From contig NZ_CP010904.1 of NCBI RefSeq assembly GCF_001017655.1, forward strand, positions 1,590,001 to 1,622,000: DNA of 32,000 bases, read 5' to 3'. The stretch comes from Kiritimatiella glycovorans (GTDB lineage: Bacteria > Verrucomicrobiota > Kiritimatiellia > Kiritimatiellales > Kiritimatiellaceae). A model generated the notes under the pieces. The model had not been told where the DNA came from, did not search any database, and saw only the letters and a list, made by a program, of their open reading frames with translations. This document shows, one piece after another, positions 1-26,405 of the stretch; position 1 is the first letter of the stretch, and every line of letters starts with the position of its first letter. Position numbers and translations under genes: made by a program.

Positions 1-294
1 AAGACCAAAGCCCGTAACCTGCTCGAACGGCTCGACGAGCACCGCGATGAAGCGCTTGCGTTCATGTACGACTTCAACGTGCCCTTCGACAACAATCAGG
101 CTGAGCGCGATCTGCGCATGATGAAGGTGCAGCAGAAAATCTCGGGCATGTTCCGAACCAAGGATGGCGCCCAAGCCTTCTGCCGCATTCGAAGCTACAT
201 CTCAACCGCCCGCAAGAATGCCGTCGGCGCTATGGATGCGCTGACCCGCCTGTTCAGCGGAAACCCCTTCGTTCCGGCGCTCAATACCTCGTAG
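1..294 (+). CDS. tnpC: IS66-family transposase TnpC, C-terminal part (partial at window edge)
   Basis: Frame 1 is open from nt 1 ([39 protein letters not shown]...). It matches the C-terminus of the 23484..24968 ORF except for two substitutions (K/E and Q/K). Confidence 0.9.
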
Positions 295-529
295 CCTCTG
301 CCGCGGATGAACGGACCTCGCCGATCCTACTCGCACTCGCCCCCTCGCAAATCCAGGCGGAGCCATCCCGACTTGCCGCCATCGTCTCGATCCCGTATAG
401 CCCATCTGGAATCGGCTAACGAGAACGGGCGACGAGAACGGCTCACGAGTTGGAAGCGCCTATCGTCCACCGCTCTCGTCGCCCGTTATCGTCAACCGTC
501 CTCTGGGAGAGGGGTACCTGAGTAGTCAC
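1..529 (+). mobile_element. IS66-family insertion sequence, copy A (right-hand ~530 bp only; the rest lies beyond the window start)
   Basis: 1..529 is a near-identical reverse complement of 23249..23777 (copy B), with only a few substitutions seen. The terminus ...GGGGTACCTGAGTAGTCAC ends at 529. The flank CCTGGCGG (530..537) would be its target-site copy. Confidence 0.9.
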
Positions 530-1280
530 CCTGGCGGTTTATCGTGTAATGGGAAATGGCCTGAAGGTTCGGGCGGTGGCTCAGGGTGTCGCGCTGGATC
601 CAGTCATAATGAAAACCGGCGGCATTCGTGTTTCCTCCCCTGTACAGGGTCTGAAACGTATACCGGAGGACTTCGTCCTCCGGGACCGTATGCCGGTAGT
701 ACTGACGCCCTCCTCCGCTTTCGCCCACGCCGGCATTTTCGGGGTAATTGATATAATGCTGCATTTCCGCGAAGTCCGGGCTTCCGGCCTCGTCGCGCAG
801 ATAGGAGGCGGCAAAACCTCCCCATGCGCTCCGATGATCCACCACAAGGTCCGCCGCTCCCGGAAACGCATTGCTGACGGATATATCCGTACTCCGGATG
901 ACGCCTTTTTCCACTCCGGCATAATAGGGCACGGAGACCTCCCAGACGCCGCGCATCGGCGAAAACCCCGCCGGCCGTCCGGAAGCGTCGACTGTGAGTC
1001 CCGCATTGCGGTTATGCGTTTCGAACACCGCACCGACCTGCCGCTCGTCATCGCCGGGCGCCGCCATAAACCCGAATTCATGCGTCTCGTTGACGCCCCA
1101 CGTCTCATCCGGCGCATAGGTGAGGCTGAGTACATTCGTGGCGGAGGCCCCGGTCGAGAAGTGACCCGTTTCCGGAGAGGTGGAGAGGAATCCCATGTGT
1201 GCCGACGGGATGATCACGCGATCGCTCACGGTGTCGTCCAGTGCACGAAAATCCTGTGAACAGGCCAGCGCGAGCCGCAC
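492..1280 (-). CDS. Hypothetical protein; its 3' end runs into IS66 copy A, and it may be the downstream half of one gene with 1317..1814
   Basis: 262-codon ORF with a GTG start and no visible SD. It is in the same frame as the upstream ORF, separated only by TGA at 1317..1319. The last ~12 codons (below nt 530) are IS-encoded, so the native C-terminus is probably lost. Confidence 0.4.
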   Translation of the reverse strand: MRLALACSQDFRALDDTVSDRVIIPSAHMGFLSTSPETGHFSTGASATNVLSLTYAPDETWGVNETHEFGFMAAPGDDERQVGAVFETHNRNAGLTVDASGRPAGFSPMRGVWEVSVPYYAGVEKGVIRSTDISVSNAFPGAADLVVDHRSAWGGFAASYLRDEAGSPDFAEMQHYINYPENAGVGESGGGRQYYRHTVPEDEVLRYTFQTLYRGGNTNAAGFHYDWIQRDTLSHRPNLQAISHYTINRQGDYSGTPLPEDG

Positions 1281-5663: not shown

Positions 5664-6668
5664 TCAGGTTCCGAATTCCACAAGCACCTTGCGGATGTGT
5701 TCCTTCCGGGCGCGGATGCGCTCGATCATATCGGGTACGTCGTCGAGCCTGATGCGGTGGGTAATCAGATCGTCGAAGTCGATTATGCCGTTTTCCACGA
5801 GGGCGAGCGACTTGATGTGCGCCCATTCGGTGTAGTCGTAATGGTGGCCCGCCGAATAGACCGCCAGCGCCTTCTCATGGATCCAGAAAAAGTTGCCGTC
5901 CGGGACCGGTTCGGTGGGTACGCCGAACATCCCCACCCTGCCGAGCCGGCGGGGGAGGCGGCTCATGAGATTGATCGTGTCCGGCTCCCCGCAGGCATCG
6001 ATGCAGACATCCACGCCCTCGCCGTCCGTCAGGCTTTCGATGCGCGCCACGGGATCTTCGCCGTACGGGTCGATCACGGCGTCCGCGCCCTGCTCCAGGG
6101 CGTACTGCCGCCGGTCGGCGATCGGTTCGACCACGAACAGCCGGGCCGCGCCGGCGGCGCGGATCATCCTGCGGAAATAATTTCCGGCACCGCCGTGACC
6201 GAGCAGACACACGGTATCGCCGAGACGGACCACCTGCTCGACCATCAGCCACACGGCGGCGGCCATCTCGAGCAGCGCACCGTCTTCCACGGACATCGCC
6301 GGCGGGATTTTCAGGTAGTCGCGGTCGATGACCACGTAGTCGGCGAACCCCCCGGAGGCGAACCATCCGCGCACGGAAAGCCGGTCGCCGATATCCACGT
6401 CGTCGACCTCGCTTCCCTTGCGCACCACCGAACCGCAGATCTCGTGACCGAGGATGTAGGGGTCGGTCGAGGTGTTCGTGCCCGGCGGGCCGTTATGGAC
6501 CTCGGCGCCGTCCATCAGATGCTTATCCGTGAGATTGCATATAGAGGTGGCCTCATTTTTGAGAAGAATGCACTTTTCGCTCCAGAACTCGGGCACCGGA
6601 ACCTTGCGCACCTCCAGCTGACCCGGGGCGGTAACCATCGCGGCCTTCATCGTTTCGGGAATTTGCAT
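5664..6668 (-). CDS. Zn-dependent medium-chain dehydrogenase/reductase (sorbitol/threonine dehydrogenase-like)
   Basis: GHEICGSVV zinc-ligand motif and LLGHGGAGNY Rossmann motif. Strong SD GAGGAGGAAGG lies before ATG 6668. The TAATG junction overlaps the upstream gene by one nt. Confidence 0.8.
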   Translation of the reverse strand: MQIPETMKAAMVTAPGQLEVRKVPVPEFWSEKCILLKNEATSICNLTDKHLMDGAEVHNGPPGTNTSTDPYILGHEICGSVVRKGSEVDDVDIGDRLSVRGWFASGGFADYVVIDRDYLKIPPAMSVEDGALLEMAAAVWLMVEQVVRLGDTVCLLGHGGAGNYFRRMIRAAGAARLFVVEPIADRRQYALEQGADAVIDPYGEDPVARIESLTDGEGVDVCIDACGEPDTINLMSRLPRRLGRVGMFGVPTEPVPDGNFFWIHEKALAVYSAGHHYDYTEWAHIKSLALVENGIIDFDDLITHRIRLDDVPDMIERIRARKEHIRKVLVEFGT

Positions 6669-7645
6669 TATCCTTCCTCCTCGCTGGTAATTCTGACCTT
6701 GATTACGTGATTGATATCCCGGGCGTAGGTCTCAAACGCCTCGTTGATCTCCGAAAGCGGATAGGTGTGAGTGATGAACCGGTCGACGCGGATGCGGCGT
6801 TCGGCCAGCAGCTGCAGGGCGCGTTCGAACGAAAAACGGTCCGTGCGGTCCTTGAAGCTCCCGTACGAGAGCAGGGTGTGCCCCTTGTCGTGCATCCGCA
6901 TGAATACGTACCGGACCGGCTCGGCCACCACGCCGAACTGGATGATCGTGGCCCCGTAAGGCCGCGTCACCCGCGGGGCCAGCTCCGCGGCCGCGGCCCG
7001 GCCCGAAGCCTCGATCACCACATCCCCGCCACGCCCGCCCGTCGCCGCCATCACCTGCCCGGGCAGATCCTCGCAGGCGGGATCCAGGGCCTCGTCGGCC
7101 CCCAGCTCCAGGGCGAGCTTCCGCTTCATCGGGCTGGGGTCCGTCACGACGACCCGTGACGCGCCGGAGAGCCGGCAGAACTGGGTATAGAGGAGACCGG
7201 CCGGTCCCTGCCCGAGAACGACGGCTGTGTCGCCGGGAACGATGCGCCCGAGCGCCATGTGCGTCACCTTGTAGGTCAGTTCGCCCAGCGAGGCCTCTTC
7301 CCAGGTCAGTGCCTCCGGCACCGGAAGCACACGATCCTCCGGCACGCAGACGTATCCCGCATACGACCCCCAGGCATCGATCGTCACCCGGTCACCCGGC
7401 GCGAACCGCGTGACGCGCGAACCCGTGCGCTCAACCGTCCCCGCCATCTCGTGGCCGAGGATGCTGTTCATCCCCTCTTTCCGGATGCCGGCGATCACCT
7501 CGCTGTCCGTCGCACTGCACAGCGTGTTGATCCGCACCCGGATCAGGACCTCGTTCTCCGCCGGCTCCGGAACAGGGACCCGTTCTATCGAGAGTCGTCC
7601 CGGCTCACGAAGAACAGCGGCCGTCATGGTTCGTTCTTCCGTCAT
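6668..7645 (-). CDS. Zn-dependent medium-chain dehydrogenase/reductase (second paralogue)
   Basis: GHEMAGTVE and VLGQGPAGLL motifs. The true start may be ATG 7627 (MTAAVLREPG) rather than 7645. Confidence 0.8.
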   Translation of the reverse strand: MTEERTMTAAVLREPGRLSIERVPVPEPAENEVLIRVRINTLCSATDSEVIAGIRKEGMNSILGHEMAGTVERTGSRVTRFAPGDRVTIDAWGSYAGYVCVPEDRVLPVPEALTWEEASLGELTYKVTHMALGRIVPGDTAVVLGQGPAGLLYTQFCRLSGASRVVVTDPSPMKRKLALELGADEALDPACEDLPGQVMAATGGRGGDVVIEASGRAAAAELAPRVTRPYGATIIQFGVVAEPVRYVFMRMHDKGHTLLSYGSFKDRTDRFSFERALQLLAERRIRVDRFITHTYPLSEINEAFETYARDINHVIKVRITSEEEG

Positions 7646-7689
7646 AGTGTTCAGCTCTTTTCCGTATCTTTTAACGGTCAGGTAAGGGC

Positions 7690-7718
7690 ATTATTCCGTA
7701 AAGGCGCGGTGCGATCAA
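7690..7718 (-). promoter_or_regulatory. Candidate sigma70-like promoter of the ADH-ADH-GH65-sulfatase operon
   Basis: The minus strand reads TTGATC-N17-AATAAT (-35 at 7718..7713, -10 at 7695..7690), about 45 nt upstream of the first ATG. Promoter consensus for this phylum is uncertain. Confidence 0.3.
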
Positions 7719-7740
7719 GAGAATGGATAAAATAATTGCA

Positions 7741-9223
7741 TCACTAGCATCCCATTCGCGAAGGACGAAAATTGTAATGGCTGACTGACTGGCTACAATC
7801 TTCTTCAGAGTCTAACCCAAAGGAGATTGCGTGATGCCAGCCAGTCGAGCCGGGAGTAAGCGTGCCATTTTTCGCCAGGTCTGTGAACTCATTCCGCCGC
7901 ACCTTGTGCCGAAACTTGCGCGCAAGCACGGGATCAAGTCGAGGGGCATCACGCCCTGGAGCCATCTGGTGAGCATGCTCTATGCGCAGTTCACCCATGC
8001 GATCGGGCTGAACGACGTGGTGGACGTGCTGCGCGCCCATCGGGCGCCGATGGCCAGCATCCGTGGCGCCAAGCCACCGAGCCGCAACGGGCTCTCGCAC
8101 GCGAACAAGACCCGCGATCCGAAAATGGCCGAGGAGCTTTTCTGGTCGGTGCTCGAGTACTTCGAGACGTTGCGACCGGGGTTCGGTGGCGTGAAGTTCC
8201 GCCGACTGCCGAGGCGCTTCAAACGAACGGTGTATGCCCTGGACTCCACGACGATCAAGCTGTTCGCCAACTGCATGGACTGGGCGAAGCACCGGCGGCG
8301 CAAGGCGGCCGCGAAGCTGCACCTGCGGCTGAACCTGGAGAGCTTCCTGCCGGCCTTCGCGATTGTCGACTCGGCCAGGGGGCACGACAGCACCAAGGCG
8401 CACGAGTTGTGCGCAGGCCTCAAGGCGGGTGAAATCGCCGTGTTTGACATGGCCTACATCGACTATACGCATCTGTTCAGACTGGCCGAGCGGGGTATCT
8501 TCTGGGTGAGCCGCGTGAAAGAAAGCATGAACTTGCGCTGCGTGAAGCGGCTGGTGAAGAAGCCCGCGGGGCGCATCCTGCGTGACGATCTCGTGCTCGT
8601 TCAGAATCCCGGTAAGCGAAAGGACTATCCGAAGCGCATGCGCCGGATCGTGGCCCGCATCGAGATCAACGGCGAGGATCGGATAATGACCTTCTTTACG
8701 AACAACTTCGAGTGGGCGGCCTCGAGCATCTGTGATCTGTACAAGGCGCGATGGAACATCGAAACCTTCTTCAAACAGATCAAGCAGACGCTGCACCTGG
8801 GCGACTTCCTCGGGCACAACCGCAAGGCGATTGAGTGGCAGCTCTGGACGGCGCTGCTGATGTACGTGTTGCTCCGCTTTCTGCATACCTGCAGCGATTG
8901 GGCGCACAGCTTTACGCGGTTGTTTACCTGCCTGCGCGCGGTTCTGTGGCAACGGCTTCATCTGCTCGCTTATTTGAAATCCTATGGGACAGCACAGGGC
9001 AGCTTCCGGATGCAATGGGCCCCACAACAAGCCTATTTGCCCGGATTAGGGTTGTCCCCTCTCTGAGATGTGGGACAGCATCGGGCGCATTTAAAAACAG
9101 GGGCATCCTTGATCGCGAAAATTATCAAATGAAACATAGCTCGGAGAAAAAGTGCGACCCTTGCAGGGCAAGGGGTTACGTAAGTCCTGTGCCCCGATAT
9201 GGGGCCTTATGGGATGCTACTGA
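7741..9223 (+). mobile_element. IS4-family insertion sequence (about 1.48 kb)
   Basis: Terminal inverted repeats TCACTAGCATCCCAT (7741..7755) and, read inward from 9223, TCAGTAGCATCCCAT (14 of 15 match). Direct repeat AATTGCA at 7734..7740 and 9224..9230; it could be 8 bp (AATTGCAT), so the boundary is ambiguous by 1 nt. One transposase ORF inside. Confidence 0.85.
7831..9066 (+). CDS. IS4-family DDE transposase
   Basis: C-terminal YKARWNIETFFKQIKQTLHL (the Y-R-E-K signature of IS4/IS5 DDE_Tnp_1), plus DSTTIKL and AVFDMAYIDY acidic-residue regions. AGGAG lies before GTG 7831 / ATG 7834. Confidence 0.9.
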   Translation: MMPASRAGSKRAIFRQVCELIPPHLVPKLARKHGIKSRGITPWSHLVSMLYAQFTHAIGLNDVVDVLRAHRAPMASIRGAKPPSRNGLSHANKTRDPKMAEELFWSVLEYFETLRPGFGGVKFRRLPRRFKRTVYALDSTTIKLFANCMDWAKHRRRKAAAKLHLRLNLESFLPAFAIVDSARGHDSTKAHELCAGLKAGEIAVFDMAYIDYTHLFRLAERGIFWVSRVKESMNLRCVKRLVKKPAGRILRDDLVLVQNPGKRKDYPKRMRRIVARIEINGEDRIMTFFTNNFEWAASSICDLYKARWNIETFFKQIKQTLHLGDFLGHNRKAIEWQLWTALLMYVLLRFLHTCSDWAHSFTRLFTCLRAVLWQRLHLLAYLKSYGTAQGSFRMQWAPQQAYLPGLGLSPL

Positions 9224-10422: not shown

Positions 10423-10452
10423 TCCCAAAAGAACGCGTTTTCCGCGTTGGAC

Positions 10453-10569
10453 GGACGCGCTCTGTCGCGTCCGTTCATTTTCCCCGTGGAGGGACGCGCT
10501 CTGTCGCGTCCGTTCATTTTCCCCGTGGAGGGACGCGCTCTGTCGCGTCCGTTCATTTTCCCCGTGGAG
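10453..10569. repeat. Three perfect head-to-tail copies of a 39-bp unit, each with a 7-bp-stem hairpin
   Basis: The unit GGACGCGCTCTGTCGCGTCCGTTCATTTTCCCCGTGGAG occurs at 10453, 10492 and 10531. The stem is GGACGCG/CGCGTCC with loop CTCTGT, followed by a T-rich run. A fourth hairpin begins at 10570 and continues into the REP-like element. Confidence 0.9.
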
Positions 10570-10622
10570 GGACGCGCTCTGTCGCGTCCGTATTTACGGC
10601 CCCGACAAAGCGGGGGCCCTCC
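10570..10622. repeat. REP-like double-hairpin element (family member 1 of 3 in this window)
   Basis: GGACGCGCTCTGTCGCGTCCGTATTTACGGCCCCGACAAAGCGGGGGCCCTCC. It shares about 85-90% identity by eye with 26217..26268 and 26325..26377. It lies between the convergent LacI and gmk 3' ends. Confidence 0.8.
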
Positions 10623-10656
10623 AGAAAAGGTTTTTTCCATCGGCGCACGCAAAAGG

Positions 10657-10730: not shown

Positions 10731-11373
10731 GCGGGGACATATTCCGGCAATGTTCCGCGAGGACGATCGCCTTCAGGCGATCGAAGGCCTCGTCCAGGCG
10801 GTCGTTGACGACCGTATACCGGTAGGTTGGGCGGTACCGCATCTCCGCGGCGGCGACGGAGAGGCGCCGCGCGATATCCTCGGGCGTTTCCGTTCCCCTC
10901 GCCTCCAGCCTGCGGCGAAGTTCTTCGCGGGAGGGCGGGACGATAAAGATATCCACGAACCCGCGGCGGACCGGATCGTCGGGCGAGGCCTTCTGCACGA
11001 TCGCGCGCACCTGTTCCGCGCCCTGCGGGTCGATATCCAGCAGCGCGTCCGAGCCCTGTCCCATGGTCTCGCGCACGGACTCGCGCAGCGTCCCGTAACG
11101 ACGGCCGTGGACGACCGCGTGTTCGATAAAGGCGTCCTCCCTGACGCGGCGTTCGAACTCCTCCTCGGACAGGAAGTGGTAATCGCGGCCGTCGACCTCA
11201 CCCGGACGCGGCTTGCGGGTGGTGCAGGAGATGGAGAAAACGAGGCCGGGGAAGTGGTCGAGCAGTTTTTGGGCGAGCGTGCTCTTGCCGGATCCCGAGG
11301 GGGCGGAGACCACCACCAGGAGCGGACGTCGGGGCGGGACGGGTTCGGGGAACGATACGTCGGGCGGATGCAT
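10723..11373 (-). CDS. gmk: Guanylate kinase
   Basis: P-loop [11 protein letters not shown] and gmk signature [21 protein letters not shown]. Length is 216 aa. Confidence 0.9.
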
Positions 11374-11377
11374 GCGG

Positions 11378-11617
11378 CTACTCCACGTTCTGGCTCTGTT
11401 CGCGAATGCGCTCGAGCTCGGTTTTGACGGCGACTCCCGCGCGGGCGATCTCGAGATCGCCCGCCTTGGCCCCGATCGTGTTGATTTCGCGCAGCATTTC
11501 CTGCGCGAGAAAATCCAGCGTCCTGCCCGCGGGTTCGTTCCCGGTCATGCTCCGGCGGAACTGTCGCACGTGGCTTCGCAGCCGGGTGCGCTCTTCGCTG
11601 ATATCGACCCGGTCCAC
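11378..11617 (-). pseudogene. yicC: YicC-family protein, C-terminal ~79 codons only (5'-truncated)
   Basis: [16 protein letters not shown]...[22 protein letters not shown]...[13 protein letters not shown] matches the conserved C-terminal (DUF1732) end of the ~290-aa YicC proteins. yicC-gmk adjacency is a common synteny. The first ~210 codons are absent. Confidence 0.7.
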
Positions 11618-12632
11618 GCCGGTCTACCACGCCGCGCGGCTCTCGGAGTACGCGGGCGGCGCTCAGATCTACCTCAAGCGGGAGGACCTCAATCACACCG
11701 GAGCCCACAAGCTCAACCACTGCATGGGCGAGGCGCTGCTCGCGCGACACATGGGCAAGAAAAAGCTGATCGCCGAGACCGGCGCCGGCCAGCACGGCGT
11801 GGCGCTGGCGACCGCGGCGGCCTGCTTCGGTCTCGAGTGCGAGATCCACATGGGCGAGGTCGACATCGTGAAGGAGGCCCCGAATGTCAGCCGGATGAAG
11901 CTGCTCGGCGCGAGCGTCGTGCCGGTGACCTTCGGGCTCAGGACGCTCAAGGAGGCGGTGGATTCCGCCTTTCAGGCGTATCTCGCGGACTACCGCAACT
12001 CGATCTACTGCATCGGGTCGGTGGTGGGGCCGCACCCCTTCCCCCTCATGGTGCGCGACTTTCAGCACGTCGTGGGGGTCGAGGCCCGCGAGCAGTTCCG
12101 CGAGATGACCGGGACCGATCCGCACGCCGTATGCGCGTGTGTGGGCGGGGGAAGCAATGCGATGGGCATCTTCTCGGGATTCCTCGACACCGCGGCGAGG
12201 CTTTACGGGGTCGAGCCCCTCGGGCGCGGCGACGGAACGGGCAACCACGCCGCCACCATGAGTTACGGGCGCGAAGGGATCATTCACGGCTTCAAGTGCT
12301 ACCTGCTGCAGGATGAAGAAGGCAATCCCGCACCGGTCTACTCCTGCGCGAGCGGACTGGATTATCCCGGCGTCGGCCCGGAGCACAGTTTTCTCAAGGA
12401 CGAGGGCCGCGTCCGGTACGTCACCGCGGACGACCGGCAGGCGATGGACGCCTTCCACCGGCTGTGCCGCCTTGAGGGGATTATTCCGGCGCTGGAGAGC
12501 GCGCATGCCGTGTCCTACGCTATCGAACTGGCGCGCGAAAGGCGCCACGACGCGATCCTGGTGAACCTCAGCGGACGCGGGGACAAGGATCTCGACTACG
12601 TACTCGAACAGTACGGTGCCGGGGACGGGTAA
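11616..12632 (+). pseudogene. trpB: Tryptophan synthase beta chain lacking roughly the first 55 codons (5'-truncated)
   Basis: Homology starts at [34 protein letters not shown] (PLP lysine) and runs through GGGSNAMG to NLSGRGDKD. The 70 codons upstream in the ORF track (11406..11615) are antisense to the yicC fragment. No trpA is adjacent. Confidence 0.7.
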
Positions 12633-12663
12633 CCCGCGGTTCCGGGATCCGGTCTCGCCCGGC

Positions 12664-15600
12664 TCAGGACCGGCCCCGGAGCATCGGCGCGGTTCTGCGG
12701 TGCGTGCCGGGAGTCAGCGTCTCCGACACCCGACCCCCTTCGGTTTCCAGCACCAGTTCTGCGGAGGTCCCGGGCGGGATCACAAAGCGGTATTCGACCT
12801 CGTCCCCGCGGCGGGACCAGTCGCTTACGATTTCCCCGTACGGGCATAGGTACGCCGCCTTCGCGCGGGTCAGCGCCTCGCACGCCTTCGGCTCCAGCCG
12901 AAAACGGGCAAACCCCGGGGCCTCCTCCAGCGGCCGTATGCCGGCGATGTGGGCATAGAACCAGGCGCTTACGTCGCCGAACATGATGTGATTCGCGGAG
13001 CGGTCCACCGACCATGATTCGGGCAGCGTCGTATAGCCCTGCTCCATCCACCAGCCGTACCCCGGGTAGGTCTTCTGAAGGACGAGGCGGCAGGCCAGTT
13101 CGTGGCGGCCGTGGGCGCTGAGCACCCGAAGCAGGTACCGGGCGCCGAAAATGCCCGTGTCCGGGTGTCCGTCCGCCGCCTCGACGGCGTCGACGAGCTT
13201 TTCGACCACGGCTGCGCGGTTTTCCTCCGGGACCAGTTCGTGGTAGAGGGCGCATGCCTGGGCCGTCTGGGTGCCGTTCGCCACGGTGCCGTCCTCGTGC
13301 AGGAACTCACGCCGGAATGAGGCGGCGATCTCCCGGGCGCGCGCGGCGTACCGCGCAGCTTCCCGCTCCATCTGCAGACGTGCCGCCGCTCTCGCGATAA
13401 TCCTCGCACTGTCGGCCAGCAGCGCGGTTACGGTGACGGCCTTCGCGGTGATGCTCGTTTCCGGACACCAGTCGCCGCGTCCGGCATCGAGGATCCCGTC
13501 CGCGGCTTTCGAGTAATAACAGTCGTGGCAGGACCTCATCGCCTCAAAGGTCCGCCGCAGGATTTCTTCGTCACCCGTGTACAGGTAGAGCTGCCAGGGC
13601 ATGCAGATGATCACGCAGTCCCAGTCGAAGAACCCGTTATACCCCCAGGTGTCGGTGGGCACGATGTCCGGGATCCTGCCGTCCTCATGCCGGCAGTCGA
13701 GAAGATCGTCAATCCACTTGGAATAGACGGCGGCTGCATCGAAATTCATCAGCCCCGTCTCAGCGGCGAGGTAGGCGTCCGCCGTCCACCCCGCCTTCTC
13801 GCGCGTGGGGCAGTCGGTCGGGAATCCGTGATAATTATTCAGAAACGAGGCGCGGGTGGCCTTCTGAATGCGGTTCAGCAGGTCCGAGGAGCACTCGAAC
13901 GAACCCGCGGATTCGAGATCGGTGTGCACCACTACCGCAGTCAGGCTGTCTTCCGCGGGCTCGCCGGGAAATCCGCTCAGTTCGATACACTGGAATCCGT
14001 GGTAGGTGAAGCGGGGCTCGTACAGCTCATCGCCCTCGCCCCTGAGGATGAAGGTGTCGGTCTGGTACGGCCCCTGATGAGTCCAGGCCTGCAACCGGTT
14101 GTCCGGCGCTTCGAAACAGCGCATCACCACACGCGTCCCCTCGGGTCCCGACACCCTCAGGCGCGGGCGGCCGCTGATGTTGCGCGGAAACGTAAACAGG
14201 AACGTATGACGCGGGGTCTCCTCGATCGAAACGGCGCGGAGTTCCTCCACGGCGCGCTCGGGCGGGAAGCGCGCCGCTTCCAGCCTTCCGCGGGGGGGCA
14301 ACATGTCCCGGACCTCCCCCCACGAGACCCCGTCCTCGAGCCGGGCGTCGTAGACCTCGCCGTTGCGGACGCCGTCGAATACGATCGGGGAGCGGGCGGC
14401 CTCCCACGTCTCGTCGGTGACGATCCAGTCGATTCCGCCGTCCTCGTATTCGATGCGGAGTTGAACGAGCGCCTTCGGATCGTCACGCCACGAGGCGAGA
14501 TCCAGATCGAAGAACTCGTAGTTGCACACGTTATACCATCCGTTGCCGAGCCACACCTCCAGCCGGTGCTCTCCCCGGGGCAATTGGGCGGTGAGATCGC
14601 AGGTCGCATAAAAGACGCGGCGCTCATAATTCGTAAAGGCCGGATCGAGTTCCCGGTCTCCGGCGCGGCGGCCATCGAGCCGCAACTCGCAGAAGCCGAG
14701 GCCGCAGACGGATGCGATCGCGGAGCGGACGGGTTTTTCGATCCGGAATGTCTTCCGCAGCCGCGGCGTCGACCGGGTCTGTCCCCACCGGTCGTCGCGC
14801 AGCCGGGCCATCTGCCGCGGCACCCTCCACATGGGCGGATACTGCAGCAGCTCGCGCTCCTCCCCGTCGGGCGCATGGCGTGCCGACCATGAATCGTCGG
14901 TGAGGATGCGGTGCTCGCCCTCCTCATCCCGTATCGCCAGGGTCGCCTGAATCCCGTAGCCCTCATGCTCGCGCACCTGGTGGGTGCTGAGTTCCAGATG
15001 ATTCTCTCCCGGCCGCAGAAAGGGTTTGAGATCCAGATCGACCGGGAGGACCCAGGAGTCGGCGCCCCCGTTGGCGGAGGTCGTGACCAGATCAGCCAGC
15101 GTGCCGTTGACGCGCACCTCCGTCTCGGTCCCGTCCACGGCCATGCGGAGTACGGCCCACTCCACCTTCTCCCCGCACCGGAAGGTCCTGGAGAAGGCGT
15201 ACCGTGTTCCTGGACGCTGGGCCTGCTGGGTGCGCGGCTTCACGTCACCCTCTTTCTCTACCGCCCAGATCCATGCTGATGAACGAAGATTGAGCGCGCG
15301 CGCCGTCGGGCCGTCGTCCCGCACCCCCGGGAGCGGATCGCTGCGTCCGATCCAGCGGCCGCGCCATCCGGCGGCGTCCAGCACCCCCATACGCCAGCGC
15401 GCCGTGTCGCTCCACGGCGAAACCCCGCCTTCGGCATCCCGCCATCGGACGCGCCAGGCCACGGGTTCATAAGCGTCAAGGGCGCGGCCCCGATAACGCA
15501 GTGCAGGTACCGCGGGCTCGACCCATCCGCTGTCCCACAGCAGTTCGCCGTCCTGCAGCGCTTTTTCGTCGCCCGCTGCATGAACCTGAATCGCCACGGG

Positions 15601-22058: not shown

Positions 22059-23240
22059 TCAGAACACGAAACGCCGGCGGATAAATCCCAGGGCGAGACC
22101 GGTGGTCCCGAGCATCGTGATCGTGGCCGGTTCCGGGATCAGATATCCGCTGTTATCCAGCGAGTAGTCACCGCTCACGCCGTCAATGGTGATGAGCTCG
22201 AGCTGACTGGAAGTCAGACCGTCCGAGCTGGTCCCGAACCGGAGGCTGTCCGTTCCGAATTCAAATCCGGTCAGTTCGAGCGAACTCCCCGTCCATGAAA
22301 ATCCGGAGCTGTCGCTGAACGAAACCGATTCGCCCGCGGCATCGCTGAAATCAAATGTGAGGTCCATATCAGCCGAGCTCAGATTAAGGACGCCGGCCGC
22401 ATTGTCGTGTCCATTGAAATCGACCAACGAGCTGCCCGAGTTATCGAACCGGAGATGAGAGGTGAACTGATTATCGGCGTTGAGCTGGACGCCCGCACCG
22501 TTGACCAGGCGGAGAGCCACCCCATCCAGCGCCGGACCGCCGGTATTCCCGAGCGAATGGCCCGTGCCCACGAAGCGCACGCCGAGTCCGCTGGTCACCG
22601 AACCGTCGAAATTCAGCACACCGTCGTGATTCTGAACACGCACGACGTTATCCGCATGAGCCTGGATGGTGCCCCTGAAATTAAGGACCGAGCTGCTCTC
22701 GATTTTGACCTCCGCATCGTTAGCCGTGGCATCAATGGTCCCCTCGAGGTTTATGGTGCCCTCCTGCTCGGCCGAGAAGAGGATGTCACCGCCGATATCG
22801 CCGACGGTAATGTCATTCAACGTCAGGTAGGCAGTTGTCGAAGGCGCGATGGTATCGATGGTCAGGTCGGCCCCTGCCCCGGAATTAATGATACTGATCG
22901 GGGCGCCCACCGTGAGCTTGGCGTTACCCACATGGATCACATCCGCCGCCGTACCCGTGTTCGGATCGATCGTAAGCGTGTTCGGCCCGTTCAGGCTCAT
23001 CACACTCGCCCCGACCGTGGTCAGGTACCCGATGGTGTAATCCCCGTCCATCGTGAGATCGAGCTCCCCCGAACCGAGCTCGGCCGTGTCGCCGTTATCG
23101 TCCGGAACACTCCCGCTGGGCGACCACATTGTCGTGTCGCTCCAGTCCCCGGTTCCACTGTCCCAAGTGTAATCCGTCGCACCGGCTATACCGGCGACCG
23201 TGACCAGTGCCGCGAACACAAACAACTTCTTCATCATCAT
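22059..23240 (-). CDS. PEP-CTERM-anchored secreted beta-strand-repeat protein
   Basis: Signal peptide MMMKKLFVFAALVTVAGIAGA, the TDYTWDSGTGDWSDTTMW repeat type, and a C-terminal PEP-CTERM sorting signal IPEPATITMLGTTGLALGFIRRRFVF. Confidence 0.8.
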   Translation of the reverse strand: MMMKKLFVFAALVTVAGIAGATDYTWDSGTGDWSDTTMWSPSGSVPDDNGDTAELGSGELDLTMDGDYTIGYLTTVGASVMSLNGPNTLTIDPNTGTAADVIHVGNAKLTVGAPISIINSGAGADLTIDTIAPSTTAYLTLNDITVGDIGGDILFSAEQEGTINLEGTIDATANDAEVKIESSSVLNFRGTIQAHADNVVRVQNHDGVLNFDGSVTSGLGVRFVGTGHSLGNTGGPALDGVALRLVNGAGVQLNADNQFTSHLRFDNSGSSLVDFNGHDNAAGVLNLSSADMDLTFDFSDAAGESVSFSDSSGFSWTGSSLELTGFEFGTDSLRFGTSSDGLTSSQLELITIDGVSGDYSLDNSGYLIPEPATITMLGTTGLALGFIRRRFVF

Positions 23241-23285
23241 CTCCTCTGGTGACTACTCAGGTACCCCTCTCCCAGAGGACGGTTG

Positions 23286-23359
23286 ACGATAACGGGCGAC
23301 GAGAGCGGTGGACGATAGGCGCTTCCAACTCGTGAGCCGTTCTCGTCGCCCGTTATCGT
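23286..23359 (-). other. Perfect 19-bp-stem hairpin in the 235-bp non-coding right end of the IS66 element (terminator, ncRNA or binding site?)
   Basis: ACGATAACGGGCGACGAGA (23286..23304) pairs with TCTCGTCGCCCGTTATCGT (23341..23359) across a 36-nt loop. The same structure occurs in copy A at 419..492 with one arm mismatch. Confidence 0.6.
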
Positions 23360-23483
23360 TAGCCGATTCCAGATGGGCTATACGGGATCGAGACGATGGC
23401 GGCAAGTCGGGATGGCTCCGCCTGGATTTGCGAGGGGGCGAGTGCGAGTAGGATCGGCGAGGTCCGTTCATCCGCGGCAGAGG

Positions 23484-24923
23484 CTACGAGGTATTGAGCG
23501 CCGGAACGAAGGGGTTTCCGCTGAACAGGCGGGTCAGCGCATCCATAGCGCCGACGGCATTCTTGCGGGCGGTTGAGATGTAGCTTCGAATGCGGCAGAA
23601 GGCTTTGGCGCCATCCTCGGTTCGGAACATGCCCGAGATTTTCTGCTGCACCTTCATCATGCGTAGATCGCGCTCAGCCTGATTGTTGTCGAAGGGCACG
23701 TTGAAGTCGTACATGAACGCAAGCGCTTCATCGCGGTGCTCGTCGAGCCGTTCGAGCAGGTTACGGGCTTTGGTCTTCTTGCGGCGGCCCCGTCGTTTCT
23801 TCGCGTTGCGCGGCAACGGCGGCAGCGGATTCTGCGCGTAGCCTTCGTCGAGGACTTGCTGGTAGCGGGCTTCGAAGGTGTGTAGCTGCCGCCGGTCAAG
23901 ATGATCGGTCGACTGTTTGGCGAGATCGACGGCCTCTTTGATGTCGAGCAGGCAGTCGATCATGTGGTCGGCCCAGTCCTGCTGGTGCTGCTCATGCGCA
24001 AAGATCAGTTCGCGCAAGTGATGGGCGTTGCAGAGGCCATGGAGGCAGTCGTAGCCGAAGTACGGTTTCCAGAAGTCGTGAACGGCGCGTCCGAGGAAGT
24101 CGGGCAGGATGCCGATCTCATCGATCGCTTCGCGGCCGCGTTTGCGATGGATGTCATAATAGGTTGCCTGTGCGGTCGAGGCCGAATGCAGCCACCACAG
24201 CTTGCCGTCTACCCGTGAGCCGGTCTCGTCGAAGTGTGCCACGGCGGCCTGCTCGATCAACTCCTTGATCTTCTCGACGGGGTCGGCGGCCAACGTGTGG
24301 GATTGGGCGATGATATTGCAGAGCGTGCCTTCGCTCATCGGGCAGCCGAAGAAGTCATTCAGCAGTTCGCAGGTTCGGTCATAGGGCAGGAACTGATAGT
24401 TCTTCAGGTACACGGCCGCAGCCTTGATCCCCTCGCCGTATTGCACGGGAGCGTTGACCCCTTCGGGGAACGCGGCTTTGTTCAGATGGCCGCAGGCGCA
24501 GGTTTTGGTTTCAGCCTGGTGCTCGGTGACGATCAGCCGCAGGGGTGGCAGGTCATGGACTTGACGCTTTTCGATGCCCTCGACGGATTGATCGGCTAGA
24601 GAGCGGCCGCAGTGTTCGCATTCCTTCACACGGTGCACTTCGGTGTGCTCGGGCTTGTCGGCCATCGCGAGCGTATGGCCGGTATGGCCGGGCTGGCCGC
24701 CGGACTTGCGCTTGCCCTTCTTGCGCAGGCTTTTGGGCGCAGGTTTCTTGAAGCCGTCGCTGGAGGGCGGTTTGCTGCTGTTGCGCGAGTTTTTGGCGAG
24801 TTGGTTCTCAAGAGACTGAACGCGTTCTTCCAGAGCACGGATGCGCGCATCCATCATCAACAGTACCCGCACGACGGTTTCCTTGCCGGCGTCGTAGATC
24901 GCTTCGGCCTCTTGGCGTGTCAT
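23484..24923 (-). CDS. tnpC: IS66-family transposase TnpC
   Basis: Leucine-zipper-like N-terminus (IRALEERVQSLENQL), NSRNSSKPPSSDG, zinc finger CEHCGRSL...CACGH, and DDE region HFDETGSRVDGKLWWLH. Start chosen at ATG 24923 (MTRQEAEAIY), which shares its A with the upstream TGA. Confidence 0.9.
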   Translation of the reverse strand: MTRQEAEAIYDAGKETVVRVLLMMDARIRALEERVQSLENQLAKNSRNSSKPPSSDGFKKPAPKSLRKKGKRKSGGQPGHTGHTLAMADKPEHTEVHRVKECEHCGRSLADQSVEGIEKRQVHDLPPLRLIVTEHQAETKTCACGHLNKAAFPEGVNAPVQYGEGIKAAAVYLKNYQFLPYDRTCELLNDFFGCPMSEGTLCNIIAQSHTLAADPVEKIKELIEQAAVAHFDETGSRVDGKLWWLHSASTAQATYYDIHRKRGREAIDEIGILPDFLGRAVHDFWKPYFGYDCLHGLCNAHHLRELIFAHEQHQQDWADHMIDCLLDIKEAVDLAKQSTDHLDRRQLHTFEARYQQVLDEGYAQNPLPPLPRNAKKRRGRRKKTKARNLLERLDEHRDEALAFMYDFNVPFDNNQAERDLRMMKVQQKISGMFRTEDGAKAFCRIRSYISTARKNAVGAMDALTRLFSGNPFVPALNTS

Positions 24924-25834
24924 CACCTGCCCGCCCTCCCTTCGGTTCGGGAGCAGGCGGGTGCGCACAACTCCCGCCGGAACTCCGGGATAAGCGGATA
25001 CAGATACACGTCCTTGACCGGCGCCTGGATGCGGCGGTCTCGATCGTTGCGGGTCCGCCCCTGCGTTGCGCCCAGGCGCATCCAGTTCGCGGCCCGGTAG
25101 CAGGTGCCTTTGAATCGGGAACGGTCCACGAACGTTTCCAAGGCATGCACGGGATGAGCGTACTTGCCCTGCCAGTCATCCCGGATGCGCCGGGCAATGA
25201 GGCCGAGGACGTGGCTGGCCAGATGCGGGACTTCGACCCAGGGCAGGATCAGGAAACGCGTATTGTTGGTCAATGCCTGGAGATTGCGTTCACGGCAGGC
25301 CCGATCCCAGCCGAGGAAACGATCCCGATCCGCGCATTTCCATGCCGCCGAACCGAACAGCGCACAGGCCACGAGCCGACCGTGCCGGTCGCGGATCAGA
25401 TAGCGCAGGTTCTCGCCCACCGTGTTGCGATGGCCCAAGTAGTGGTATCGGCCCAGCAGCCCTTTGAACAACTGCGAGTTATCCGAACGTGGGGCGACAA
25501 GGTCTGCCGACAGGGGCCGCAATGCGCTCAGGTCAGAGCGAATCGGTTCGGCGGCAGGTTCTACGGCAGGCACGCACCGGTTGCGGAAATGATTGGAAGA
25601 CGGGCGTTGACGCGCCGGCAACTCGATGCATCCGCGTCGCTCCAGCTTCAACAGCAGGGAGCGCGCCGCCATGTCCTTGATACGGCCCTGCGCGTTGCGC
25701 CAGTTCCAGCAGCGGCACAGTTCTTCGCTCAGGCGGGTACGGCCCCAGTCCTGGTTCTTCGCCATCAAATCCCGGATCAAGGCGATCTCGCCGTCCGTGA
25801 TTCTCCGCCCCTGAATGACCATAGCCTGTGCCAT
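24923..25834 (-). CDS. DUF4338-domain protein (Druantia DruA-like) encoded inside the IS66 element
   Basis: HYLGHRNTVGENLRYL, NNTRFLILPWVEVPHLASHVL, ETFVDRSRFKGTCYRAANW and GATQGRTRNDR match my recollection of the DUF4338 family signature. The ORF lies wholly between the IS inverted repeats. Confidence 0.65.
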   Translation of the reverse strand: MAQAMVIQGRRITDGEIALIRDLMAKNQDWGRTRLSEELCRCWNWRNAQGRIKDMAARSLLLKLERRGCIELPARQRPSSNHFRNRCVPAVEPAAEPIRSDLSALRPLSADLVAPRSDNSQLFKGLLGRYHYLGHRNTVGENLRYLIRDRHGRLVACALFGSAAWKCADRDRFLGWDRACRERNLQALTNNTRFLILPWVEVPHLASHVLGLIARRIRDDWQGKYAHPVHALETFVDRSRFKGTCYRAANWMRLGATQGRTRNDRDRRIQAPVKDVYLYPLIPEFRRELCAPACSRTEGRAGR

Positions 25835-25971
25835 GGTCAGCAGCGTAGAAGACCACGCGATCCGAGTCCAGCAGAAAATCGGGTTTTTTCTGTTGCGCTC
25901 GGGGGGGGGTAGACTACGATTGTTTCAGTGGTAGCGCCATGGTGGGGCTACCTGAGTAGTTACCTCCTCTG

Positions 25972-26216: not shown

Positions 26217-26268
26217 GCGCGCTTTGTCGCGTCCGCATGTACGGCCCCGACGGAGCGGAGCCCTCCGG
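26217..26268. repeat. REP-like double-hairpin element (family member 2)
   Basis: GCGCGCTTTGTCGCGTCCGCATGTACGGCCCCGACGGAGCGGAGCCCTCCGG is similar to 10570..10622 and 26325..26377. The first stem is slightly degenerate. Confidence 0.75.
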
Positions 26269-26324
26269 AAGAAGTTTCTCGCAAAGCTCGCAGAGATCGC
26301 GGTGAGGGGGATTTCTCTGGTGAA

Positions 26325-26377
26325 GACGCGCTTTGTCGCGTCCGCATTTACGGCCCCGACGGAGCGGGGCCGTCCGG
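26325..26377. repeat. REP-like double-hairpin element (family member 3)
   Basis: GACGCGCTTTGTCGCGTCCGCATTTACGGCCCCGACGGAGCGGGGCCGTCCGG has hairpins GACGCG/CGCGTC and GGCCCCG/CGGGGCC. It lies just past the 3' end of the sulfatase gene ending at 26406. Confidence 0.8.
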
Positions 26378-26405
26378 ACAATGCAGAGGGAAAGGGAATG
26401 CGGTC

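Follow-up and report, generated by a model that had tools for sequence, protein, structure and literature searches.

The feature under study is an insertion sequence (IS) of Kiritimatiella glycovorans, lying in a stretch of 32,000 nucleotides (nt) of its genome (contig NZ_CP010904.1, positions 1,590,001 to 1,622,000), hereafter the window. In this IS a gene for a protein with a DUF4338 domain, orf1, is coupled to tnpC, the gene of an IS66-family transposase of the DDE type (Table 1). The initial annotation of the window, made by reading the sequence alone, had described a 2715-bp element at 23249..25963 with terminal inverted repeats (IRs) and a perfect 8-bp target-site duplication (TSD), holding two minus-strand open reading frames (ORFs) of 303 and 479 amino acids (aa). 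All of these were recovered, the IRs pairing at 18 of 20 positions, as was the TGATG that joins the two genes, nt 24923 belonging both to the orf1 stop and to the tnpC start; 11 nt 5' of the tnpC ATG stands a GGAGG motif. The orf1 start may be either M1 (303 aa, as in RefSeq) or M5 (299 aa, as in GenBank), and the products of orf1 and tnpC are identical to WP_201774603.1/AKJ64620.1 and AKJ64619.1. With ends reading GTAACTACTCAGG and GTGACTACTCAGG, the element has the IRs starting with GTAA and the 8-bp duplication by which the IS66 family is recognized. The reported absence of tnpA and tnpB was likewise corroborated: the 10 largest other ORFs within the element (72–331 aa) are without any Pfam match, and the only non-coding DNA inside its ends amounts to 129 bp plus 235 bp. 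As for mobility, which had been read from a second copy at the start of the window, that copy is 99% identical to the full one and inverted relative to it, and at least nine annotated loci of the K. glycovorans genome encode the orf1 protein at ≥90% identity (copies being counted from annotated loci via the members of its protein cluster). The element is accordingly multi-copy and presumably active.

Table 1. Coordinates of the element, its genes, protein domains and ends, and its second copy in the window.
Feature	Coordinates	Strand	Basis or description
IS element (intact)	23249..25963, 2715 bp	both genes -	IRs, TSD and ORFs
Terminal inverted repeat, tnpC-distal end, GTGACTACTCAGGTACCCC	23249..23268	+	pairs at 18/20 positions with the other end
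Terminal inverted repeat, orf1-proximal end, GTAACTACTCAGGTAGCCC read inward	25944..25963	-	pairs at 18/20 positions with the other end
Target-site duplication, left copy, CTCCTCTG	23241..23248	.	same as 25964-25971
Target-site duplication, right copy, CTCCTCTG	25964..25971	.	same as 23241-23248, perfect 8 bp
orf1, 303-aa DUF4338 protein	25834..24923	-	Pfam PF14236, E 9.3e-38; AlphaFold2 model with a pLDDT (predicted local distance difference test score) of 92
orf1 N-terminal domain, aa 1-66	25637..25834	-	beta-hairpin plus three helices, helix-turn-helix (HTH)-like
orf1 GNAT-fold domain, aa ~100-290	24965..25537	-	Foldseek and Mom profile alignment
tnpC, 479-aa IS66-family DDE transposase	24923..23484	-	DUF6444, zf-IS66 and DDE_Tnp_IS66
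Translational-coupling junction	24921..24940	-	GGGAGGG Shine-Dalgarno and TGATG stop/start overlap
Second copy of the IS, tnpC 3' part and terminus	1..530	+	530 nt, 99% identical to 23248-23777; cut by the window edge
Subterminal imperfect palindrome	23280..23365	.	two 36-nt arms around a 14-nt spacer; lies past the tnpC stop, before the IS end

The placement of the element within its family follows from the transposase and the ends. TnpC matches the NCBIfam IS66 equivalog (E 3.7e-97; 325.8 bits, the cutoff being 180) and, in Pfam, DDE_Tnp_IS66 (E 2.9e-49) together with zf-IS66, so that the family assignment of the initial annotation stands; its N-terminus is a DUF6444 domain. The closest annotated plasmid-borne relatives, at 42–51% identity, are proteins named 'IS66 family transposase' of Acaryochloris, Leptolyngbya, Bacillus, Geobacillus and Deinococcus. 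None of the 127 plasmid records with TnpC relatives contains a DUF4338 match (a search of the same collection with orf1 returned two unrelated records only), and the one plasmid region inspected, from Acaryochloris, has a single transposase ORF. ISDge4 of Deinococcus geothermalis, an ISBst12-group element of one ORF, the transposition of which was demonstrated experimentally, has the terminal IRs GTGACTACTCAGCA and GTAACTGCTCAGCA and an 8-bp direct repeat (PMC12898284). The termini of the present element are nearly identical to these. Given the nearest plasmid relatives of its TnpC, the ISDge4-like ends and the 8-bp duplication, its backbone is an ISBst12-type, i.e., TnpC-only, IS66 element with one extra gene, and the whole is an intact, recently active IS belonging to the ISBst12 branch within IS66. 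We considered, and rejected, a canonical IS66 element that had exchanged its tnpA and tnpB for another gene, since both the TnpC relatives and the ends are of the ISBst12 type. The original formulation, that a DUF4338 gene stands in place of TnpA and TnpB, is therefore correct as to their absence and needs refining as to a swap: the TnpC-only branch gained a gene. The name given to TnpC by the Prokaryotic Genome Annotation Pipeline (PGAP) is the generic 'IS66 family transposase', which hints weakly that it has no close named reference.

The association of the two genes was examined from both sides. Starting from orf1, whose assignment to DUF4338 was upheld by the hidden Markov model search (PF14236, the 'DruA' family of Pfam, at 130.5 bits where 27 is the cutoff), a profile built from 50 diverse homologues was run against data with one genome per species and returned at least 589 loci, the best 80 of which were examined. 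These come from PVC (Planctomycetes–Verrucomicrobia–Chlamydiae) bacteria, Planctomycetota, Desulfobacterota, Acidobacteriota, Bacillota, Chloroflexota and Nitrospirota, and include one metagenome-assembled genome (MAG) each from Saccharibacteria and Bathyarchaeota. A co-oriented DDE transposase lies directly downstream of DUF4338 in 73 of the 75 loci with enough downstream sequence, the partner being of the IS66 type in 61, ISKra4 in 8 and IS1182 in 4. Termini of the form GTAACTACTCAGG enclose the gene pair at 17 related loci of various phyla (elements of 2.4–3.4 kb), four of which also have perfect 8-bp TSDs, and in 24 of the 31 loci checked the transposase start either overlaps with the DUF4338 stop or directly adjoins it (ATGA, TGATG or -8 to -17). 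Hence, the enclosure of the DUF4338 gene by the IRs and the stop/start overlap, both noted at the outset for this one element, are kept in relatives from other phyla.

The reciprocal survey, with TnpC alone as the query against metagenome contigs, gave 80 loci at 55–94% identity. A full DUF4338 gene lies upstream in 60; in 8 it is cut by the contig end and in 3 it is damaged, with a further 6 loci being without upstream sequence and 3 without DUF4338. Put differently, DUF4338 is present upstream, in full (60) or in part (11), in 71 of the 74 informative loci, and this answers the possibility raised with the initial annotation that orf1 might be a passenger or a chance insertion in the IS. Two of the three loci without DUF4338 (L134, 821–2721; L135, 2118–4018) are 1.9-kb TnpC-only elements with termini GTAACT(A/G)CTCAG, the same IR type, and a TnpC ~72% identical to that of the window. 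In these, orf1 has been lost secondarily or, alternatively, the single-ORF state is ancestral. Thus, orf1 is nearly always retained, yet the element can exist without it, in keeping with the mobility of ISDge4.

The DUF4338 domain is also found joined to transposases within single polypeptides. An exhaustive profile-free search with orf1 yielded 8984 clusters at 50% identity, 921 of them at E ≤ 1e-30. Among the best 150 cluster representatives 28 are longer than 340 aa, and 14 of the 20 long representatives that were scanned contain in-frame fusions to parts of transposases. The fused partner is Tn5/IS50-like in six (Tnp_DNA_bind with or without DDE_Tnp_1 and Dimer_Tnp_Tn5) and DDE_Tnp_1/IS4-like in three, with one instance each of ISAzo13, IS630 (HTH and DDE_3), IS701 (DDE_5), IS66 (in the reverse order) and DUF6444. 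Further, the N-terminus of WP_216644545.1 from a finished Thiodictyon plasmid, a protein that PGAP names 'ISAs1 family transposase', is a DUF4338 domain. On a second plasmid, pTs485 of Thiodictyon (L083, 3339–8828), a DUF2235 gene is interrupted by the genes of a DUF4338 protein and an IS4 transposase together, between which an integrase + IS91 unit has inserted; judging from its layout, this looks like a record of nested insertion in which DUF4338 and IS4 moved as one unit. Fusions to domains other than transposases were seen as well, namely to DUF6788 (P0216, P0233) and to an adenylate/guanylate cyclase domain (P0200). On a Nitrospirales chromosome (L025), an IS66-type DUF4338 element (5925–8337, perfect TSD TACAATTG) lies ~2.5 kb from a 659-aa ORF (10812–12788) in which DUF4338 is fused to a Tn5-like transposase.

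In sum, DUF4338 is a module that accompanies DDE transposases of at least eight unrelated families, either as an upstream gene or fused to their N-terminus, the families being IS66, ISKra4, IS1182, IS4/Tn5, ISAzo13, IS630, IS701 and ISAs1. In a neighbor-joining tree of 97 DUF4338 domains, computed without support values, the ISKra4 partners occur in at least three places and the IS1182 partners in at least two amid an IS66 background, and the fused forms fall in separate clades. This scatter of the ISKra4 and IS1182 partners over the tree implies repeated exchange of partners between DUF4338 and transposases. We accordingly regard orf1, with high confidence, as a dedicated transposon accessory module. 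Our literature searches found no paper linking DUF4338, PF14236 or DruA to transposases, and the cross-family association, along with the link to Mom described below, is more notable than the IS itself.

This body of evidence bears on one alternative, namely that orf1 serves the carrier of the IS, as an anti-restriction DNA modifier or a defense or counter-defense gene hitch-hiking in the element. Such a role would accord with the homology of orf1 both to Mom, which modifies DNA to counter restriction, and to the DruA of a defense system, with an extremely wide horizontal spread that reaches an archaeal MAG, and with the mobility of TnpC-only relatives. Nevertheless, in-frame fusions to at least five transposase families and a conserved coupling are unexpected for cargo, the gene is kept in 71 of the 74 informative TnpC-defined loci, and no other Druantia component occurs at any locus. 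We consider this alternative quite unlikely.

To turn to the protein itself, the AlphaFold2 model of orf1, computed from an alignment of 50 homologues, has a pLDDT of 92 and a predicted template modeling score (pTM) of 0.78. It comprises two domains joined by a partly disordered linker with a near-invariant LP motif. The N-terminal domain, which has a pLDDT of 87 when modeled alone, finds its top fold matches, all of them weak, in the HTH domains of Lrp/AsnC, CENP-B, Pax and Mos1, and DNA binding by it is only a suggestion from the model. The larger C-terminal domain follows the GNAT fold order beta1-alpha1-alpha2-beta2-4-alpha3-beta5-alpha4-beta6-7 and carries the motifs HY (131–132), S207, ETFVD (233–237) and GTCYRAANW (243–251). 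A search of PDB sequences with the profile of the DUF4338 family found no homologue. By structure, Foldseek retrieved 96 PDB matches at E ≤ 1e-3, with target TM-scores (template modeling scores) of up to 0.66; the top 50 are all GNAT-fold acyltransferases, among them SpeG, RimI, Gcn5, FeeM and EsaI (E ~5e-5). That DUF4338 is a GNAT domain had been noted in passing by the Aravind group (PMC10853773). Matches in the viral structure set BFVD are better (E 3e-9 to 1e-6) and include uncharacterized NAT_SF proteins. Among the best of the BFVD matches are phage proteins of ~500 aa that carry UniProt names such as homing endonuclease, endonuclease-like or restriction-endonuclease-like (e.g., I7KLM9, A0A8S5PXW9, A0A6J5LAL1). 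Fusions of Mom-family domains to nucleases of the restriction endonuclease fold have been described in jumbo phages by the Aravind group (PMC7824862); should the BFVD proteins share that architecture, they would add a further case in which this GNAT subtype is paired with nucleases of mobile DNA.

In the GNAT domain of orf1 the canonical acyl-CoA pyrophosphate loop (Q/RxxGxG/A) is absent, the beta4-alpha3 loop reading PWVEVPHLASH (family consensus PWVxVxxLAS). The missing loop bears on the most conventional role for such a fold, that of a protein acetyltransferase which would tune transposition by acetyl-CoA-dependent acetylation of TnpC or of a nucleoid protein. Fusion to a putative substrate is common among regulatory GNATs, and the fold of orf1 is the generic one, with SpeG, RimI and Gcn5 as its best PDB matches. 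Moreover, S207 and Y246 occupy positions that hold CoA in ordinary GNATs (PMC7261163). Weighing against acetylation, besides the loop, none of 50 DUF4338 members matches a Pfam acetyltransferase family, Mom being the only match, and one protein substrate common to eight unrelated transposase families is hard to envisage unless it were a host factor; this reading is, in our estimate, very unlikely. Even less can be said for an addiction module in which orf1 would stabilize the IS as a GNAT toxin akin to the tRNA-acetylating TacT and AtaT. It is true that GNAT toxins act on aminoacyl-tRNA and that Mom is toxic when over-expressed (PMC13219725, PMC7261163). However, the element has no antitoxin-sized gene, at least nine copies are tolerated in one genome, and the domain is fused to transposases, which together make a toxin extremely improbable.

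The comparison with Mom is the more informative one. Mom of phage Mu transfers glycine from Gly-tRNA(Gly) onto the N6 of adenine in duplex DNA, with a putative active site consisting of H58, Y59, R111, S124, D149, R151 and Y159 (PMC13219725; older numbering in PMC7261163). Five of these, H58, Y59, S124, D149 and Y159, align with H131, Y132, S207, D237 and Y246 of orf1. The Pfam Mom family (PF25680) is matched by 18 of 50 DUF4338 members, with a best E of 1.7e-6, and no other acetyltransferase family was matched. In profile–profile comparison, DUF4338 aligns with 38 Mom homologues over 154 columns spanning the whole core (E 7.4e-4); against the single Mu Mom sequence hhalign gives a weak match (E 0.011, probability 4%). 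Across all 97 DUF4338 domains of the tree, whatever their partner, H131, R170, W176, R193, S207, E233, G243, Y246, W251, G255 and K274 are invariant, and D237 is D or E with two exceptions (H and N). Since the Mom-like active-site residues are invariant, orf1 would be an enzyme. That its substrate is a nucleic acid, modified in a Mom-like manner, we put forward tentatively, as somewhat less likely than not.

The invariance of these residues also decides how we weigh a non-catalytic role, in which orf1 would be a DNA-binding or targeting adaptor built from an HTH-like domain and a degenerate GNAT scaffold, in the manner of OrfA-type proteins. Such an adaptor would sit well with the weak resemblance of the three-helix N-terminal domain to HTH DNA-binding domains, with the upstream, translationally coupled position of the gene, with the placement of DUF4338 N-terminal to the transposase's own DNA-binding domain in the fusions and with the presence of VPHLASH where canonical GNATs have the CoA loop. 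Nonetheless, the retention of the Mom-catalytic equivalents and of several Arg, His, Glu and Lys residues without change in 97 sequences and with eight partners is unusual for a scaffold. Further, the ends differ between the partner transposase families, making a common end-binding adaptor unlikely, and the five perfect TSDs available (from the element and its relatives) have no common target consensus. We therefore rate an adaptor as unlikely. The proposal of the initial annotation, that orf1 is an IS-encoded accessory factor for DNA binding or target choice and no defense gene, thus holds in its main point, with one refinement: the absence of Druantia genes from the window and the 160 related loci and the in-frame transposase fusions strongly bear out an accessory factor as against a defense gene, and as to its role the invariant Mom-like residues point to an enzyme.

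Taking these lines together, we favor, as on balance probable, the reading that the element is an ISBst12-type IS equipped with a transposase-coupled, Mom-like accessory enzyme that would modify nucleic acids, its catalysis being deduced from conservation. The layout of the element, its marks of mobility, the tie to transposases throughout the family, the fold and the conserved Mom-equivalent residues are observed, whereas the catalysis, its substrate and the advantage to the element are inferred. Briefly, we advance the following mechanism. TnpC, a DDE transposase, would recognize the GT(A/G)ACTACTCAGG termini and make the 8-bp target duplications. By coupling or by fusion, orf1 would be made with the transposase and delivered by it. 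Its GNAT domain, presumably active in a Mom-like fashion, might then move an acyl or aminoacyl group onto a nucleic acid, the likeliest being DNA in or close to the transpososome, be it the element ends, the donor flank or the target, with the group supplied by a route other than the canonical acetyl-CoA/protein-lysine one. In this manner, orf1 could modulate, assist or protect transposition and would have no part in strand transfer.

Several observations weigh against this reading and temper it. (i) The likeness to Mom is weak in absolute terms, with an hhalign probability of 26% for the DUF4338 and Mom profiles; the orf1 of the window has itself no Pfam Mom match at E ≤ 0.1, and Mu Mom is absent from its top 50 structural matches. 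(ii) R111 and R151 of Mom are without aligned arginines in orf1, where R193 and R240 are nearby, and the HTH-like insertion of Mom (~175–209), which is essential to its activity, is missing in DUF4338, with an Arg-rich loop of ~17 residues in its stead. (iii) A fold search with the N-terminal domain of orf1 gave no significant match (best E 1.8). (iv) orf1 is dispensable for the transposition reaction, as the TnpC-only ISDge4 transposes and the TnpC-only elements L134 and L135 exist. (v) The loci surveyed are the closest part of a family of ~9000 clusters at 50% identity, and, as to novelty, the two-gene subgroup may already be catalogued in ISfinder.

The relation of orf1 to the DruA protein of the Druantia anti-phage system calls for separate comment, because its database names suggest a defense gene. 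The IS-borne K. glycovorans proteins WP_201774603.1, WP_201774599.1, WP_082116585.1 and WP_201774601.1 are labeled 'Druantia anti-phage system protein DruA' by PGAP/RefSeq, and so are MAG homologues from Roseovarius and Phycisphaerae. The PADLOC models of DruA match orf1 weakly (19.5 bits and E 1e-4, over no more than 54 residues), as they do 34 of 50 of its relatives (best E 2.2e-7). Druantia genes are absent both from the window and from all 160 related loci, where the neighbor is a transposase instead. In view of the weak match to the defense models, the lack of druB-E and the transposase partner, the PGAP name is misleading for IS-borne DUF4338 genes. With the position of the defense DruA relative to the IS clade judged through the PADLOC models only, Mom and defense DruA appear to be the nearest families of the IS-borne DUF4338 proteins, at about equal distance from them.

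These findings have consequences for the study of both defense and transposition. Of DUF4338 the part examined, consisting of the 150 best representatives and 160 loci, lies overwhelmingly on transposons, and single-gene 'druA' counts in censuses of defense systems may therefore be measuring ISs. A MAG defensome study lists druA among the defense genes with high mutation, which IS copies could explain. It is rare for eight transposase families to have one accessory module in common, which suggests that the module serves a generic step, either of DDE transposition or of IS persistence. The link to Mom offers a testable idea for DruA in type I Druantia, that of covalent DNA marking, possibly via a charged tRNA, and, if active, the DUF4338 proteins would add greatly to the recently defined class of DNA-acting GNATs. 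On the widest reading, DUF4338 might constitute a large overlooked class of transposon-encoded Mom-like enzymes that, together with DDE transposases of many families, covalently mark DNA, possibly in a tRNA-dependent manner, at the ends, donor or target to control or protect transposition. By extension, DruA, taken over from transposons, would then be what marks DNA as self or non-self in type I Druantia, a subunit comparable to DruM, the methylase of type II. As a whole, this wider hypothesis strikes us as rather unlikely.

As to the remaining features of the element, the subterminal palindrome has arms that are 83% complementary and a counterpart in the second copy at 413–498. The minus-strand RNA of 23249–23490 (242 nt) folds with -94.9 kcal/mol (z -3.1), and related ACGA/CGG-rich palindromes are seen in L086 and L088, which are close relatives, whereas distant relatives have none. 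A classical terminator was ruled out because the palindrome is without a T-tract; its sequence could serve as a transposase-binding site or as a transcriptional insulator. A scan of the element for sigma-70 promoters and terminators found no promoter-like site and one terminator-like site, which is irrelevant.

The neighbors of the IS in the window encode sulfatases, a rhamnosidase, a sialate-esterase-like esterase and a PEP-CTERM protein. The insertion lies 8 bp upstream of the ATG of the last of these, a 393-aa PEP-CTERM-type ORF (22059..23240, minus strand), and the reverse complement of the target duplication CTCCTCTG contains its GAGGAG ribosome-binding site. Severed from its own promoter, this gene may rely on read-through from tnpC, given that the IS genes and the PEP-CTERM gene are co-oriented. 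The two inverted copies of the IS (1–530 and 23249–25963), with their tnpC-distal ends inward, bracket a segment of 22.7 kb which, near the full copy, contains a sulfatase, the rhamnosidase, the sialate-esterase-like protein and the PEP-CTERM ORF; the pair could mediate inversion. An origin of this segment as a composite transposon was rejected, since the full copy is flanked on either side by a matching TSD of its own. The locus tags of other copies (01315, 01320, 01342, 01352 and 01372) suggest a local IS hotspot. Finally, a short GC-rich repeat (…CGCGCTCTGTCGCGTCCGT…) occurs in three tandem copies spaced by 39 bp at 10439–10624, with related 52-nt copies at 26218–26269 and 26327–26378, just past the orf1-proximal end of the IS; it looks like a family of intergenic repeats of the K. 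glycovorans genome resembling repetitive extragenic palindromes.

Set against known systems, the element stands closest to the ISBst12 group, typified by ISDge4 and ISBst12 of Geobacillus, with which it shares a TnpC-type DDE transposase without tnpA or tnpB, termini of the form GT(A/G)ACT(A/G)CTCAG and the 8-bp target duplication. Unlike those elements, which have one ORF and span ~1.5–1.9 kb, it measures 2.7 kb and has a coupled 303-aa gene upstream. Canonical IS66 elements (IS66, IS679 and ISEc8) resemble it in the IS66 DDE domain and TnpC zinc finger, the GTAA-type ends, the 8-bp TSD and the presence of upstream accessory genes with overlapping stop and start codons. It departs from them in having no tnpA or tnpB homologue and a TnpC with an N-terminal DUF6444, and in that its accessory protein is of the GNAT fold, unrelated to TnpA and TnpB. 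With DruA of type I Druantia (druABCDE), orf1 shares the Pfam family PF14236 and a core that aligns to the PADLOC models; the IS-borne protein, however, has ~300 aa as against ~400 positions in the model, and IS-borne DUF4338 was never found accompanied by druB-E, having a transposase as its companion instead.

Two further comparisons concern function. Mom, like DUF4338, has the GNAT fold with the motifs HY, S (at the start of helix 3), (E/Q)xFxD and GxxYxAxN(F/W)xxxG, and it too is encoded by a transposable element, Mu being a transposing phage; besides their own family, DUF4338 members matched no Pfam family other than Mom. The differences are that DUF4338 has an extra N-terminal domain, unrelated to the HTH-like insertion of Mom, and that Mom is unlinked to the Mu transposase gene. 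The second is an analogy with the TnpB proteins of IS200/IS605 and IS607. These are RNA-guided nucleases, with no kinship to DUF4338 in sequence or fold; nevertheless, they offer a parallel in which one accessory family stands alongside several mechanistically unrelated transposases. By this analogy, an accessory family common to unrelated transposases would seem to render a generic service to the element, as opposed to forming part of its chemistry.

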